Counted from the first letter of the stretch, positions 3,487-63,841 are shown. The stretch: 64,000 nucleotides of DNA from a virus (IMGVR_UViG_3300031993_000004:213584-277583); one strand, 5' to 3'. The notes: generated by a model not told the origin, from the letters alone. Made by a program: numbers and translations.

Positions 3487-4467
3487 TCAGATCATTCCTT
3501 CCGGGAGTGTGACATTCCGCTTCCAAATGCCTTGCGAACGATTAATCGGTTTGACTTTCAAAATCTGACTCAGAAGCTTATTCAGATCTGTTTGCATCTG
3601 CGTAAGATACTGCTTCGAATGCGGAACGACGTAACGATCATCATTCATATCGAGGCAAGTCAGATAGAAGTCAACCAACTCAATCTTGGAGCAGGTATAA
3701 CCAGCAAGCATCGCTTGGTCATTGGAATCCTGAATGGCGTTGAGCTCGACAGTGATATATGCGACAACATCACGCGGAATCGGCTTCAACTTCTTTGGAC
3801 GACGAGCGAAAAACGCTTCTTGTTCGACGTGTTCTTCGGGATTGAAATCATCATCTTCGAAATCATCATCGTCGACTGGGGACTGATCTTCCAGATTCTT
3901 GATATCGTTGACCTCATGTTTGGTTTCACGAATATCATCCTTCAGATCTGTAGGCAACGATGTATGATCTCTTGTGTCAAGATAATGATCAGTCAACTTC
4001 TCGACTTCAGCATCAGGTTCCTTCAACTGCGTCATGAAGTTGTTACCGTTCTGAACACCGAGATCGATCTCCAATGTTCCATCGTCAGACATTTTACCCA
4101 TGACACCAGTCAGGATAATCTTCAGATGTTTTGGAGTATCGATACCACAACGCGTCATCGCATTGCATGGAAGATTCTGCATCATCACGCCAGTTGCATG
4201 ATTATCCAGCTCTTCAGCATCATCAAAGATTGTACCCTTTGCAATTGCATCAGCAACCGATTCGAGTTGAATTTCGGTTACATCATTTGGATACAGCAGA
4301 TGAATATGGTCCTCTGTTGTATATGCACGAATTGTCGTTCCTTTATAAGAATCAACAATCACTCGACGTTTCCGGTTCGGATGTTTGATCTTGGCATACT
4401 CTGTAATGGCTTTAAACTTTCCATTTTCCAGGAATGCTTTAACCATATCGGATCCAAAACCATTCAT
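3487..4467 (-). CDS. Putative virion protein, predicted to be processed
   Basis: Start moved to ATG 4467 (AAAGGTGGTG RBS); acidic linker followed by VEQEA and a helical C-terminal domain. Confidence 0.7.
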   Translation of the reverse strand: MNGFGSDMVKAFLENGKFKAITEYAKIKHPNRKRRVIVDSYKGTTIRAYTTEDHIHLLYPNDVTEIQLESVADAIAKGTIFDDAEELDNHATGVMMQNLPCNAMTRCGIDTPKHLKIILTGVMGKMSDDGTLEIDLGVQNGNNFMTQLKEPDAEVEKLTDHYLDTRDHTSLPTDLKDDIRETKHEVNDIKNLEDQSPVDDDDFEDDDFNPEEHVEQEAFFARRPKKLKPIPRDVVAYITVELNAIQDSNDQAMLAGYTCSKIELVDFYLTCLDMNDDRYVVPHSKQYLTQMQTDLNKLLSQILKVKPINRSQGIWKRNVTLPEGMI

Positions 4468-16310: not shown

Positions 16311-16324
16311 TTACTAAACCGTTT
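16311..16324 (-). promoter_or_regulatory. Putative late promoter AAACG-N6-TAA
   Basis: Minus strand AAACG GTTTAG TAA. Confidence 0.75.
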
Positions 16325-21736: not shown

Positions 21737-21750
21737 TTAACAGTTCGTTT
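21737..21750 (-). promoter_or_regulatory. Putative late promoter AAACG-N6-TAA
   Basis: Minus strand AAACG AACTGT TAA. Confidence 0.7.
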
Positions 21751-33963: not shown

Positions 33964-34107
33964 GCGAATTACCTCATTTCTTAAGATTAAATTATTAGAA
34001 CATAGTGCATCGTGAAATTTTTGTTTTCACTTACATTTGAGTTTTCTGACATACAAACACGTTAACATGTCGGCGACATGTAAATCAAACTTTTCTAGGA
34101 GGGTTAT

Positions 34108-36605: not shown

Positions 36606-37610
36606 GTGTCTTTTATTTTTCACCATGATGATGATGATGGAAGATGTGCTGCAGCCATTGTCTACAATGATATGTGTCAGCGGGATCCGTTCATCGAAGA
36701 TAATATCTACGAGTATACATACGGTACGGAGATGCCGTCGATCGACATCGATAAGATCCATCCCAGTGATACGTTGTATTTTGTAGACATCTCGCTGTCG
36801 ACAGTTGTGTTCCAATTCATCAAAAGTATCCTCATCAAGTTCCCGGCAGTGAAAGTTGTGTATATCGATCACCACAAAACGACCAATGATTATCTGGAGT
36901 ATACTACATTCTCCAAAGAATCTCTCGATATATTGCAACGGATCACATTCTTCATCAAGCAGGGTGTGTCTGCTTCTATACTTGCGTGGGTGTATTCGTG
37001 CATGAGTAACGAAGAGCGGAAAAATCCGAATAAATATGTGTGGGATGCAACTGCGACATATTCACACATTGGCATCGGTACTGATCTTGATTCACTGCGC
37101 GAATATCGTGTCCCGATGGTCGTCAGATTTATCAACGATTGGGATGTGTGGAACCATGAGATCTCCGGAACCAGAGCATTCCATTACGGATTTATGACAG
37201 AAACAGATAAGTCTCCTTCAAGCAAGCTGTGGGTGAATCTGATCTATAATGAGGATTCAATCAGCATCACTCGGAAGTATCTGACTCCTGGTGAGACAAT
37301 TGTTGCGATTAAGGACGGAGAATCGAAACATATCATTGACACTGGATGGGAATATCCGATGTGTTTCAATGGTGAAATGATCAAGATCTTTGTCGTGAAT
37401 GCACGTGGTGACTCATTCATGTTCGGAGATAAACTCGATAAATATCCGGCAGTTTGCATGTTCTGGCGCACAAAAGATATGTGGGAATATAGCTTCCGTT
37501 CTAATGCTATAAATGGCATTGATGTTTCGAAGCTGTGCAAATCTCTCGGCGGCGGTGGACATATTCATGCAGCTGGTTTCAAATCAAAAGACCTGATGTT
37601 TGTACTGTAA
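36606..37610 (+). CDS. DHH/DHHA1 family phosphoesterase
   Basis: HHDDDDG, FVDIS, IDHHKT, GGGGHIHAAGF. Confidence 0.9.
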   Translation: MSFIFHHDDDDGRCAAAIVYNDMCQRDPFIEDNIYEYTYGTEMPSIDIDKIHPSDTLYFVDISLSTVVFQFIKSILIKFPAVKVVYIDHHKTTNDYLEYTTFSKESLDILQRITFFIKQGVSASILAWVYSCMSNEERKNPNKYVWDATATYSHIGIGTDLDSLREYRVPMVVRFINDWDVWNHEISGTRAFHYGFMTETDKSPSSKLWVNLIYNEDSISITRKYLTPGETIVAIKDGESKHIIDTGWEYPMCFNGEMIKIFVVNARGDSFMFGDKLDKYPAVCMFWRTKDMWEYSFRSNAINGIDVSKLCKSLGGGGHIHAAGFKSKDLMFVL

Positions 37611-37619
37611 TGTGAGAAA

Positions 37620-37647
37620 GAATGTGGGGGCCGAAGCCCCCACATTC
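37620..37647. terminator. Bidirectional hairpin terminator, cUUCGg loop on minus strand
   Basis: GAATGTGGGGGC-cgaa-GCCCCCACATTC. Confidence 0.8.
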
Positions 37648-37649
37648 CA

Positions 37650-38000
37650 TCTCCAACGAGGTAGAGTTCTTACGATTGTTACTAGAAATGCTTTCTCGTG
37701 ACATTACTGACCGAATTCCAGAATACATAGAAGGAGTAAACTGGTCGACAACATTCAGTCAATAATCGGGAGTATATGTATAAATCACATGATAAGTTCT
37801 TTCACATCAACGCTCCGGAATCTGCGTGCGTGTCACAGATTGATGGCCATCTTAACCAGATTCATATGGTTCATATTAAGAAAATAATACGTGAGACTTA
37901 TTTTTTATCGACACAACCTGTCAGAGCTATCTCTGGTATTATCGACGTCACATGAAACATATTACATGATGTGAACGAGGGCATTACCATGCAATTGTCA
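37650..38000 (-). ncRNA. Candidate structured non-coding RNA of ~350 nt, family unknown
   Basis: ORF-free gap with nested stems, including a 14-bp helix (37703-37716/37753-37766) whose two G-U pairs form only on the minus strand and a 9-bp long-range helix enclosing four hairpins. Confidence 0.6.
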
Positions 38001-38005
38001 ACATA

Positions 38006-39925
38006 TCAGGCTTTTACAACCTTTTCCAGTGGTGTCATTGTTGGTTTGATTCCATCGATTGTTTGAGTCAAACCAACATTGATTGCGGAAGAGATATCTT
38101 GGAACAGCAAACCTTGCAGGATACCTGCGCGCTGAACTGCTACACGATATTGTTCCTTATCATACGACATCGGATCGACACCACCCTGTCCGAATTTCAA
38201 CGCAAACGATTTGCCTCCGGAACGGCATACACGGCGTGCGATAATTTCGTATGTGATCGAAGGACCGGTCAAATCGATTTTATTGATCTCCAGACAGCGG
38301 AACATCATTTCTGTCATCATATTATATGGAATTTGTGCAGTCTTTGAATACAAATATATCTGATTGATAAAGAACTCAACATTCTTAACGGATTGGCGAA
38401 TTGCAACGGAGCAGATCTTTGATTCAGGCTCATATTGGAGAATGAAGTAATCCGGATCTTCTTGGACGTCTTCATAGATACTGAAGTCCAATGTGGTAGG
38501 AACAGTCATCCTTGTCGACAGGACTTCTTTTCCTGAATTATCATAGAACTTCACGGGTACAACACCAAATGAAGAACACGTTGTAGCCTCCAGCGAGAAG
38601 CCTTTGAACTCATCAAACATTTTCGGAATGAAAATCTTCATCGGAATTCTGTTCACGATGAAACCTTCCTGAATATCGAAGTAATTATTCTGTTGCTCAA
38701 AGATCCATTTCTTGTCAATAATTGATGCGGACTGTGACAAGTCATGCTTCGATTTCAGTTTCAGGTTCAAAAGCTTCTGCGTGATAGAAGTGACCAGCAA
38801 ACCGATCTGTGTGACTTCCAAGTTATGGAACACACGGCCTGCACATTTCCCACAAATTGCATCATGTGTGCAACATTGTGGGGAATACATATTGACGGTT
38901 TTTCCAACGAATGAACTGATGTTGTCCAATGTTGTCAAAACTTTCTTACCGCCTTCGTTGATGTAACGGAACAGCATATACTGCTTATTGCTGTCAGTGA
39001 TCGTAATCGGGATTGTTTGTGTAGTACCACAGTCAGATTCTGGATCTGGATCAATATGAATAGACTGCAACAATGCAAGAATAATCTTTGCCATATAACC
39101 AGCATCTGCGGTACCAACTGCTGAAGGATATGCACCAGCAACAACAGAGTTTGCAAATGACGGAATATCTTTCTTGTTAATGCCATCCATCAGAGATGAC
39201 TCTGAGATATCAAATCGACCGGTCAAGTTATTAAAGACTGCTCCACGCATAACATTGATCGTCTTGTAGTTGTTATCAAGGTTGCCATCACCAGATGCAT
39301 ACATGTCGTATCCATAGTCGTTTTTCAGATTCTGACGAACAAGAGCCATCAGTTCCTTTTCAACTGCATTAGATGCGAGCAGCTGTTTCGTCGGGTCTGT
39401 TGAATGCAGATCATCATGGTATTTCTCCAACAGTTGCAGCTTCAGCTGTTTCACATTATTCATCGGACGAACCAATGAAGGAGAAATTGTGGATGACAAA
39501 AATGATGCGGATTGGAACCCGAGCTTATCACGTCTGTCAATGAATAAACCAAGCGTTTTTGTATCAATCTGGGATGTAATGACCAAATTGTTAACAAGCA
39601 TGTTTAATCTTCCAAGTCCCTTTTTGTGAAGCGGAATATTCCAATACCCCAAGAATTTGATGATTCCGGTATACTCTAATAGATACCTATTCATGAACAG
39701 CATTCCAAGGGATGTTTCGACGTCTTCTTTCACGTATTCATAGTCTGCATGTGTCAACATAATGTGATCATTTGCATTAAATGCAGATTGCTTTTGCGTA
39801 TTTGTTGTTTTATCGAAATAGGATGCAAAAAGACTTTCCAAAAAAGCCTTGTTGAACTCTGTTATATTAGCGCTGAGGATACGCTGTTTTCCAACCGATG
39901 CAGTGGATGATGTTGGCTGCGCCAT
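38006..39925 (-). CDS. Phage RNA polymerase beta' subunit, C-terminal half (probably virion RNAP)
   Basis: Bridge helix AVGTADAGYMAK, DCGT, Zn site SPQCC....ICGKCAG, trigger loop IGLLVTSITQKLLNLKLKSKH; no DFDGD; late promoter upstream. Confidence 0.88.
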   Translation of the reverse strand: MAQPTSSTASVGKQRILSANITEFNKAFLESLFASYFDKTTNTQKQSAFNANDHIMLTHADYEYVKEDVETSLGMLFMNRYLLEYTGIIKFLGYWNIPLHKKGLGRLNMLVNNLVITSQIDTKTLGLFIDRRDKLGFQSASFLSSTISPSLVRPMNNVKQLKLQLLEKYHDDLHSTDPTKQLLASNAVEKELMALVRQNLKNDYGYDMYASGDGNLDNNYKTINVMRGAVFNNLTGRFDISESSLMDGINKKDIPSFANSVVAGAYPSAVGTADAGYMAKIILALLQSIHIDPDPESDCGTTQTIPITITDSNKQYMLFRYINEGGKKVLTTLDNISSFVGKTVNMYSPQCCTHDAICGKCAGRVFHNLEVTQIGLLVTSITQKLLNLKLKSKHDLSQSASIIDKKWIFEQQNNYFDIQEGFIVNRIPMKIFIPKMFDEFKGFSLEATTCSSFGVVPVKFYDNSGKEVLSTRMTVPTTLDFSIYEDVQEDPDYFILQYEPESKICSVAIRQSVKNVEFFINQIYLYSKTAQIPYNMMTEMMFRCLEINKIDLTGPSITYEIIARRVCRSGGKSFALKFGQGGVDPMSYDKEQYRVAVQRAGILQGLLFQDISSAINVGLTQTIDGIKPTMTPLEKVVKA

Positions 39926-39952
39926 ATCATTCCCTCCTTTATAAGATACAGA

Positions 39953-39966
39953 TTATCGTTCGGTTT
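39953..39966 (-). promoter_or_regulatory. Putative late promoter AAACC-N6-TAA
   Basis: Minus strand AAACC GAACGA TAA. Confidence 0.65.
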
Positions 39967-46550: not shown

Positions 46551-46564
46551 TTACCTTAGCGTTT
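46551..46564 (-). promoter_or_regulatory. Putative late promoter AAACG-N6-TAA
   Basis: Minus strand AAACG CTAAGG TAA. Confidence 0.75.
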
Positions 46565-51151: not shown

Positions 51152-51165
51152 TTACTGAAACGTTT
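51152..51165 (-). promoter_or_regulatory. Putative late promoter AAACG-N6-TAA
   Basis: Minus strand AAACG TTTCAG TAA, identical to the 14897 copy. Confidence 0.75.
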
Positions 51166-63827: not shown

Positions 63828-63841
63828 TTACAGAACCGTTT
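63828..63841 (-). promoter_or_regulatory. Putative late promoter AAACG-N6-TAA
   Basis: Minus strand AAACG GTTCTG TAA. Confidence 0.75.

Follow-up and report, generated by a model that had tools for sequence, protein, structure and literature searches.

We found that the minus strand of positions 37621-38005, immediately 3' of the stop codon of an RNA polymerase (RNAP) subunit gene in an uncultured phage of a rumen/gut jumbo-phage clade, encodes a conserved, strand-specific RNA structure under purifying selection. The element is most likely the 3' domain of the late RNAP-subunit mRNA, and two copies of it probably pair with each other through a palindrome. We prefer the explanation that this folded, dimeric 3' domain would act as a riboregulator pairing with Shine-Dalgarno (SD) sequences, and we give the explanation as a whole about an even chance (roughly 0.5). 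Positions are those of the window, the whole stretch of 64,000 nucleotides that was analysed, which forms the final 64 kb of a jumbo-phage record of 277,583 bp rated 100% complete by CheckV.

The gap between the RNAP subunit gene and the convergent DHH gene measures 395 nt and terminates in a UUCG-capped hairpin (Table 1). An earlier note on this DNA, made without database searches, had described an ORF-free gap bounded by the RNAP stop codon and a cUUCGg hairpin, and this description was borne out. The stop codon lies at 38006-38008, and the small ORFs within the gap (23-110 amino acids) shift frame and length between homologues, with no ORF conserved among them and no SD sequence seen before the in-gap ATG of the window; a small protein gene was therefore rejected. 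Stop-codon read-through was rejected as well, the frame being open for 34 codons in the window, similarly open in the relative L003, and closed in L001, where the RNAP gene ends in the double stop TGATGA. The same type of hairpin closes every homologous element. A scan for simple U-tract terminators did not call the window's hairpin, as only 4 of the 8 nt in its tail are U. Hairpins of the type GGGGC-UUCG-GCCCC also occur at several other sites of the genome, on G000:C1 at about 7036, 75219, 125727, 155337, 157993, 195914 and 197213, as expected for a standard phage terminator.

Judging from protein comparisons, the gene upstream probably encodes a virion RNAP subunit. Its product matches phrog_2962 ('RNA polymerase beta subunit') with E 1.2e-57 and, through the C-terminal half, phrog_2926 ('virion structural protein'); it also matches chain 7S00_D of the AR9 nvRNAP (non-virion) with E 3.5e-9. 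No Pfam match was found for the protein at E < 0.01, and in tblastn searches it was ~30-35% identical to RNAP genes of AR9/PBS1 and Staphylococcus jumbo phages. The 38006-39925 product is thus RNAP beta/beta'-like over its N-terminal two thirds and matches the 'virion structural protein' PHROG over the rest. The DHH gene lies downstream in most relatives, whether the element is present or absent.

Homologues were collected by searching IMG/VR, JGI metagenomes and ENA/Logan assemblies with the RNAP protein. We found 18 further versions of the element at the same junction, in gaps of 340-520 nt and beside RNAP subunits 65-90% identical to that of the window. One RNAP search gave roughly 40 clusters in this identity range, of which 14 were looked up. 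The carriers fall at 77-90% RNAP identity (L001, L003, L019, L020, L039/L040, L043 and L044), 71-74% (L045, L054, L052 and L042/L053), 72-73% (L041 and L046) and 65-69% (L047, L063, L075 and L076). The element is absent, with a gap of 27-49 nt, from L048 (64%), from L055, L056, L059, L060, L064 and L004 (60-62%), and from most relatives at or below 59%; wherever these short gaps were read, they hold the terminator hairpin only. Four loci of low identity have longer gaps (L057, 61%, 231 nt; L065 and L068, 51%, 140 nt; L070, 48%, 457 nt), and none of the four gaps matched the covariance model R1. At L057 (3212-3445) the gap occupies the same junction, between two different terminator hairpins, and its content is unrelated to the element.

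With model R1, for which five sequences were used, the scores were 125 bits for L043, 122 for L039, 62 for L044, 36 for L052, 32 for L045 and 25-26 for L053, L042 and L054 (window, Table 1). L041, L046, L047 and L063 fell below its threshold, and L075 and L076 lay outside the R1 search; these six (groups C and D) were assigned by position and shared motifs only and are less certain members. In the 277.6-kb genome the element is single-copy by both BLAST and the covariance model, and it always sits at the same junction, for which reasons a mobile element (MITE or IS remnant) was rejected. Neither this genome nor the records of L004 and L005 contain a paralogue, and blastn of the region against 50,697 phage records gave no match. 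A scan of IMG/VR for the motif GATGGCCATCNNTCNGTGA returned known relatives only, plus two chance matches (L014 and L015). A 22-nt degenerate core motif found a single match among 185,579 GTDB genomes (L038, a Cellvibrionaceae MAG); chance alone would give about one, and this match was rejected by the covariance model. Its presence in one clade at a fixed junction, and its absence from more distant relatives, indicate that the element is lineage-specific and point to a single origin at the base of the clade followed by vertical inheritance in place. Since relatives live without the element, whatever it does is dispensable.

Evidence for selection on an RNA structure came from covariation. In a plain MAFFT alignment of domain 1 from five versions, RNAalifold gave 61 base pairs, with 90.5% of the cells paired. 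Compensatory change was found in 18 of the 61 pairs, compared with 8.4 ± 2.1 in column shuffles (none of 500 reached 18) and 2-8 in controls with slid partner columns. When 10 versions were aligned to R1, an alignment that is fitted to the model and hence leans towards it, 90.7% of the cells paired and 36 of the 61 pairs showed compensatory change; shuffles gave 19.2 ± 2.6, with none of 500 reaching 36, and slid partner columns gave 9-14. A search of alignment A6 for extra covarying helices or pseudoknots found none beyond the known helices. The structure is also strand-specific. G-U pairs account for 43 of 296 paired cells, and pairing stands at 90.5% on the minus strand versus 77.7% on the plus strand. 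Without the terminator, the 351 nt fold with z = -2.54 on the minus strand (2 of 100 shuffles were as good) and z = +0.57 on the plus strand; with the terminator, the values are -4.76 and -3.03. Covariation is the stronger evidence of the two. Furthermore, domain 1 is 73-78% identical between versions versus 51-53% at third codon positions of the adjacent gene, and the element is therefore as constrained as protein-coding DNA. The earlier proposal of selection on the minus-strand RNA, made from the G-U pairs, thus held both when the folding energies of the two strands were compared with shuffles and when homologues at the RNAP locus were examined for covariation.

Table 1. Positions of the element, its parts and its neighbours in the window.
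Feature	Position	Strand	Basis or remark
DHH/DHHA1 phosphoesterase gene, convergent (context)	36606..37610	+	phrog_4771, E 5.6e-33; weak Pfam DHH, DHHA1
GC-rich UUCG-capped hairpin AAUGUGGGGGC-UUCG-GCCCCCACAUU; 3' boundary common to the convergent DHH gene	37621..37646	-	Sequence, MFE fold
Purine-rich single-stranded tail, GAGAAAGCA in the window, CAAAGGAAAGCA in most relatives	37689..37697	-	Alignment A4 and homologue sequences
Domain 2, long hairpin	37703..37766	-	Individual folds of 12 homologues
Domain 1, three stacked closing helices P1-P3 and branched core, 233 nt	37773..38005	-	RNAalifold, pair counts, R1 213 bits
P1	38001-38006/37774-37779	-	Pairs the last base of the stop codon
P2	37983-37996/37783-37795	-	Consensus fold
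P3, UUCACAUCA/UGAUGUGAA	37967-37975/37801-37809	-	MFE and consensus fold
Hairpin GACA-GGUUG-UGUC (NNCA-GGUUR-UGNN in the family)	37910-37922	-	Covariation
Small hairpin	37864-37876	-	Consensus fold
Helix 6, UCUGG/CCGGA	37856-37860/37814-37818	-	5/5 pairs compensatory
Self-complementary GAUGGCCAUC, candidate dimerisation site	37842..37851	-	~15-nt bulge between helix 6 and hairpin 7
Hairpin 7, enclosed by helix 6	37819-37841	-	Consensus fold
Jumbo-phage multisubunit RNAP beta/beta'-like subunit gene, 639 aa	38006..39925	-	PHROG match
Late-promoter-like motif AACCGAACGATA (AACC-N6-TA)	39954..39965	-	29 nt upstream of the RNAP gene ATG

Besides the hairpins of its core, the region inside P1-P3 holds an A-rich stretch. 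Helix 6 encloses hairpin 7 together with a bulge of ~15 nt that contains the palindrome. The helix 4 proposed by RNAalifold was poorly supported (76-82% paired) and was set aside for the hairpin NNCA-GGUUR-UGNN, which covaries better. Domain 2 is modelled from single-sequence folds because MAFFT could not align it structurally. Its 3' strand, UCGGUCRGUARUGUC, is conserved and its 5' strand is variable in a compensating manner, the closing pairs reading GACAC/GUGUC, GACAU/AUGUC, GGCAU/AUGUC, GCAUU/AAUGC or GAUAUUG/CAAUAUC in different versions. Conserved single-stranded motifs are GUAAA, which precedes the palindrome, UCGGUCRGUARUGUC, and CAAAGGAAAGCA. A pairing between the purine-rich tail and the pyrimidine loops, compared by eye, was inconsistent and was not retained. 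Extra GC hairpins and poly-A tracts follow the tail in some relatives, and the terminator hairpin comes last.

This fold shares part of its helices with those drawn in the earlier note. The 14-bp stem 37753-37766/37703-37716, with two G-U pairs and an inner CCAG/CUGG, is present in the MFE fold and is the stem of domain 2; the pairing now called P3 recurs in the MFE fold, as does AAUCUG/CAGAUU. The CAGAG/CUCUG pairing and the idea of a CUCGU/ACGAG contact found no conservation among homologues, nor did CUUAA/UUAAG with ACCA/UGGU, which conflicts with the covarying helix UCUGG/CCGGA. Several of the earlier helices are thus specific to the window, and that account lacked the two most informative features, the palindrome that covaries and the family's anti-SD-like loops.

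The element belongs to no Rfam 15 family and, as far as its sequence and predicted fold indicate, is a member of none of the 3'-domain or ornate-RNA families with which we compare it below. The 4227 Rfam models, among them those for 6S, tmRNA, RNase P, group I/II introns, ROOL, GOLLD, OLE, raiA, HEARO, pRNA and ribozymes, gave no match at gathering thresholds in the 64-kb window or in 16 homologous loci. At E <= 10, the interval 37400-38300 had sub-threshold hits only; most fell on the terminator hairpin or in the adjacent upstream coding sequence, and none came near its gathering score. ARAGORN found no tRNA or tmRNA. These searches agree with the earlier impression that no tRNA, tmRNA, RNase P, SRP or hammerhead signature is present; together with covariation and purifying selection, the lack of an Rfam family supports the claim of a new multi-domain ncRNA. 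A group I or II intron was rejected: the RNAP protein ends in …EKVVKA, and its last residues (…KA) are the same in L004 and L021 (53-60% identity, no element). No exon is missing, since the end of the protein does not change with the presence of the element, and no match to RF00028 or RF00029 was found even at E <= 10.

Next, we considered how the element is transcribed. Between the RNAP gene and the element, neither a hairpin terminator nor an AAC-N7-TA motif was found in any of the 19 versions. An own promoter was rejected, there being no AACG/AACC-N6-TA before P1. A CA-ATTACA-TG string in P2 resembles the AR9 form AACA-N6-TG only in L001 and is explained by pairing, and sites found in a scan for sigma-70-type promoters were no commoner than in shuffles. 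Upstream of the RNAP gene, the AACC-N6-TA motif resembles the late promoter consensus of the AR9 nvRNAP, AACA-N6-TA/G (PMC5312081), as well as the AACG-N6-TA sites that precede other minus-strand genes, and we regard it as a putative promoter. With no promoter motif or terminator between gene and element, the element would be read as the 3' domain of the late RNAP mRNA, which is the most likely arrangement and makes late synthesis together with the RNAP subunit, as earlier claimed, plausible.

The leader AAACCGAAC-NN-TAAT (39951-39966, minus strand) was conserved upstream of the RNAP gene in 14 of 14 element-bearing relatives examined, with the same position kept in L001, L003, L039, L041-L047, L052, L054 and L063, and it is absent upstream of the RNAP gene in L048, which has no element. 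An AAGGAGG SD sequence is found in the leader of all 14 element-bearing versions examined. The leader is almost invariant, a conservation that exceeds the need of a 12-nt promoter. Elsewhere on the minus strand, AACG-N6-TA (mostly AACG-N5-GTA) occurs at 16312-16323, 21738-21749, 34052-34063, 46552-46563, 51153-51164 and 63829-63840. These motifs resemble the AR9 late promoter, and their distance to the ATG of the minus-strand gene that follows is 25-31 nt in four cases and 56-90 nt in two; AACG-N6-TA is not enriched in the whole window (16 found versus 22 expected).

In 19 of 19 versions a palindrome of 6-14 nt stands at the site that corresponds to the window's bulge between helix 6 and hairpin 7, 140-171 nt 3' of the stop codon. 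Seven spellings were found: GAUGGCCAUC, GAUGCGCAUC, GGUGGCCACC, AUGAUGCAUCAU, UGACGUCA/GACGUC, UCGACGUCGA and CCGGCCGG. The changes between them are symmetric and include the central four bases, and GAUGGCCAUC occurs once in the 277.6-kb genome. At the level of sequence, a self-complementary site has therefore been kept across evolution at a homologous position, as is looked for in homodimeric RNAs. Since the central four bases stay self-complementary, which a hairpin does not need, and since the 8-nt forms are too short to fold back, intermolecular pairing is the most economical reading, and two RNA copies probably pair through the palindrome. Palindromic pairing is a documented RNA homodimer interface in HYER1/5 and in the ARRPOF bulge (PMC12990946; see also PMC12286853). 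The MFE dimer computed by RNAcofold uses the palindrome in 7 of 10 versions, but this support is weak, since a bulge-bulge contact lies outside the model of RNAcofold and a 10-bp GC-rich palindrome always scores well.

Most versions also present an anti-SD-like sequence, CCACCUC(C/U) or CUCCUU, in a hairpin loop. A scan of 17 versions detected it in loops of 13; L075 has it as well, L076 does not. Group B has CACCUCCU in the loop that caps hairpin 7 (in three versions, 0 of 300 shuffles), and this apical loop reads CCACCUCC(U), an 8-mer common to the 3' end of Firmicute 16S rRNA. CCACCUC stands in hairpin loops at other positions in L019, L020, L047, L063 and L075. The window has CUCCUU (37731-37736) in the apical loop of domain 2, as has L043, and this 6-mer is not significant alone (P = 0.18). 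L039 and L044 do not have the motif, and L001 and L003 have a weak form of it. In the phage genomes G000 and G003, extended targets of these loops were limited to the element's own opposite strand, the remaining matches being generic SD complementarity of 5-8 nt. Duplexes between the element and its cognate 5' UTR were no better than swapped ones (-21.5 versus -22.4 kcal/mol), indicating no co-evolution with the own 5' UTR. From the loop sequences we infer that they may bind SD regions and control translation.

In the explanation that we prefer, a transcript would run from the AACC-N6-TA motif at 39954-39965 through the RNAP gene to the GC hairpin at 37621-37646. Domain 1, beginning at the last base of the stop codon, domain 2 and the purine-rich tail would fold as the covariation shows, and two copies would join via the bulged GAUGGCCAUC. 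The pyrimidine-rich apical loops (CUCCUU here, CCACCUCC in relatives) would be exposed in a form resembling the 16S rRNA 3' end. The folded and probably dimeric 3' domain would then serve as a riboregulator that pairs with SD regions and damps translation late in infection, which is the weakest step; its target might be the mRNA to which it belongs, or it might work in trans, with or without prior processing. A more daring extension, which we hold only tentatively and consider unlikely, is that the element represents a new large phage RNA class, made as the tail of the virion-RNAP subunit mRNA, in which a symmetric homodimer joined by the bulged palindrome and presenting two loops that resemble the 16S 3' end would act either as a bivalent clamp on SD sequences or as a decoy for a factor directed at the ribosome or at rRNA.

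Part of the data would also fit a purely cis-acting 3' UTR, whose fold would protect or insulate the RNAP mRNA by blocking exonucleases or antisense read-through from the DHH gene, with no trans target and no functional dimer. We think it rather improbable that this is the full explanation. The position between stop codon and terminator hairpin at a convergent junction would suit such a role, own promoter and specific target were not seen, and Firmicutes offer examples of long 3' UTRs with a function (PMC3868564, PMC5737220). However, relatives at or below 64% RNAP identity have a bare terminator hairpin at the same junction, and since that hairpin suffices there, protection does not need 350 nt. 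The conserved bulges and loops, the covarying palindrome and the recurring CCACCUC loop would likewise be superfluous for a mere roadblock.

Somewhat less probable still is an RNA that binds protein or scaffolds an RNP. It might bind the phage RNAP as a 6S-like decoy, enter the virion together with its RNAP, or serve as a decoy for a factor of the host defence or one directed at ribosomes. RNAP binding, packaging and anti-defence had been put forward in the earlier note, and our analysis gave no evidence in favour of any of them. Such a role could account for the linkage to a virion-type RNAP subunit gene in every version and for the conserved single-stranded motifs named above, and loops that mimic the 16S 3' end could decoy its binder. 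Like the element, 6S RNA and phi29 pRNA are structured RNAs of bacteria and phages; they measure 170-200 nt and bind a large enzyme, and pRNA oligomerises by intermolecular loop pairing. The likeness ends at the fold: in the element, P1-P3 enclose a branched junction that has four or more internal hairpins, not a rod with a central bubble, so that 6S RNA was rejected. No 6S or pRNA Rfam match appeared even at E <= 10, the jumbo-phage context is unrelated, and the pRNA ring uses two different complementary loops where the element has one self-complementary site. By eye we found no promoter-mimicking AAC-N7-TA or template-strand motif in the element, and nothing links it to virions.

The remaining readings fit the data poorly. 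An element acting as DNA, with the palindrome or inverted repeats as sites for a dimeric DNA-binding protein or as an origin or packaging signal, is very unlikely: although a perfect 10-bp palindrome lies in an intergenic region where transcription converges, the pairing and the significant folding energy belong to the minus strand, and the palindrome occurs once per genome. Its sequence is almost wholly changed between versions, too variable for a protein recognition site, yet it stays self-complementary up to its centre, so that base pairing fits better than protein recognition. Most improbable of all is a decaying, functionless remnant of an inserted gene, intron or mobile element, as the restriction to one clade, the empty junction in more distant relatives and the variable length and interior (an insert in L003, replaced segments in L039 and L043) might suggest, but compensatory evolution, purifying selection equal to that on neighbouring coding sequence, the lack of a shared ORF remnant or paralogue, and an RNAP that ends in …KA with and without the element and shows no intron match all speak against it.

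Taking up the preferred riboregulator again, we compared the element with known systems. The 3' domain of S. aureus RNAIII is a regulatory domain that pairs with SD sequences. Firmicute 3' UTRs that regulate by pairing with SD regions include the S. aureus icaR 3' UTR (PMC3868564) and the 5'/3' UTR interaction of B. subtilis hbs (PMC5737220). Like these, the element is a structured region 3' of a coding sequence with C/U-rich, anti-SD-like hairpin loops, part of an mRNA and potentially a riboregulator. Unlike them, it has no sequence or structural homology to any of the three, its SD pairing is predicted, and no cognate 5' UTR co-evolves with it; compared with the icaR motif it is far larger, with a more elaborate fold and a putative dimerisation site.

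Large, intricate ncRNAs conserved by covariation are rare, and several have proved to be ribozymes or RNA-only assemblies. ROOL, GOLLD, OLE, ARRPOF and raiA are large ornate homo-oligomeric RNAs of bacteria and phages (PMC12286853, PMC12990946), and HYER ribozymes dimerise via palindromic pairing (PMC12990946). The element resembles this set in exceeding 300 nt, in its multiple domains and covariation, in its association with rumen/gut phage DNA and in its predicted self-complementary pairing. In contrast to ROOL, GOLLD, OLE and raiA, it has no Rfam match, is smaller and is attached to an mRNA where those are free-standing genes, and its oligomerisation is predicted from sequence. The palindrome itself may be likened to a further case. 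The HIV-1 DIS is a GC-rich palindrome in a hairpin loop of the genomic RNA and serves packaging; both are short, GC-rich, flanked by adenosines, and variable between lineages yet self-complementary, whereas here a phage with a DNA genome carries the palindrome in the 3' domain of an mRNA, at a bulge or junction. Taken together, these comparisons suggest that in function the element is most like the structured regulatory 3' domains of Firmicute mRNAs, and that its size and likely self-association resemble the ornate rumen/gut phage RNAs.

Whatever its function, the element is a solid new RNA motif for databases, new to Rfam and with a clear phylogenetic onset within an uncultured rumen/gut jumbo-phage clade. 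Homodimerisation through the palindrome and the display of anti-SD loops are two hypotheses that arise from the sequence. If co-transcription is as we propose, mRNAs of bacterial viruses can carry long functional 3' domains, and if the extension to a bivalent homodimer were true, a functional RNA quaternary assembly would have a role in taking over or protecting translation in rumen jumbo phages.

We also observed that the element is modular. An 83-nt insert of two hairpins separates domains 1 and 2 in L003 (5155-5237). The helix-4 region is expanded in L039 (~3500-3530), and the A-rich middle of domain 1 is replaced in L043 (~3525-3575). Between domain 2 and the terminator, L003, L019, L039, L043, L047 and L063 have a GC-rich hairpin followed by a run of 7-13 A, a module that the window does not have. 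In L019, CCACCUC stands in the loop of this extra GC-rich hairpin.
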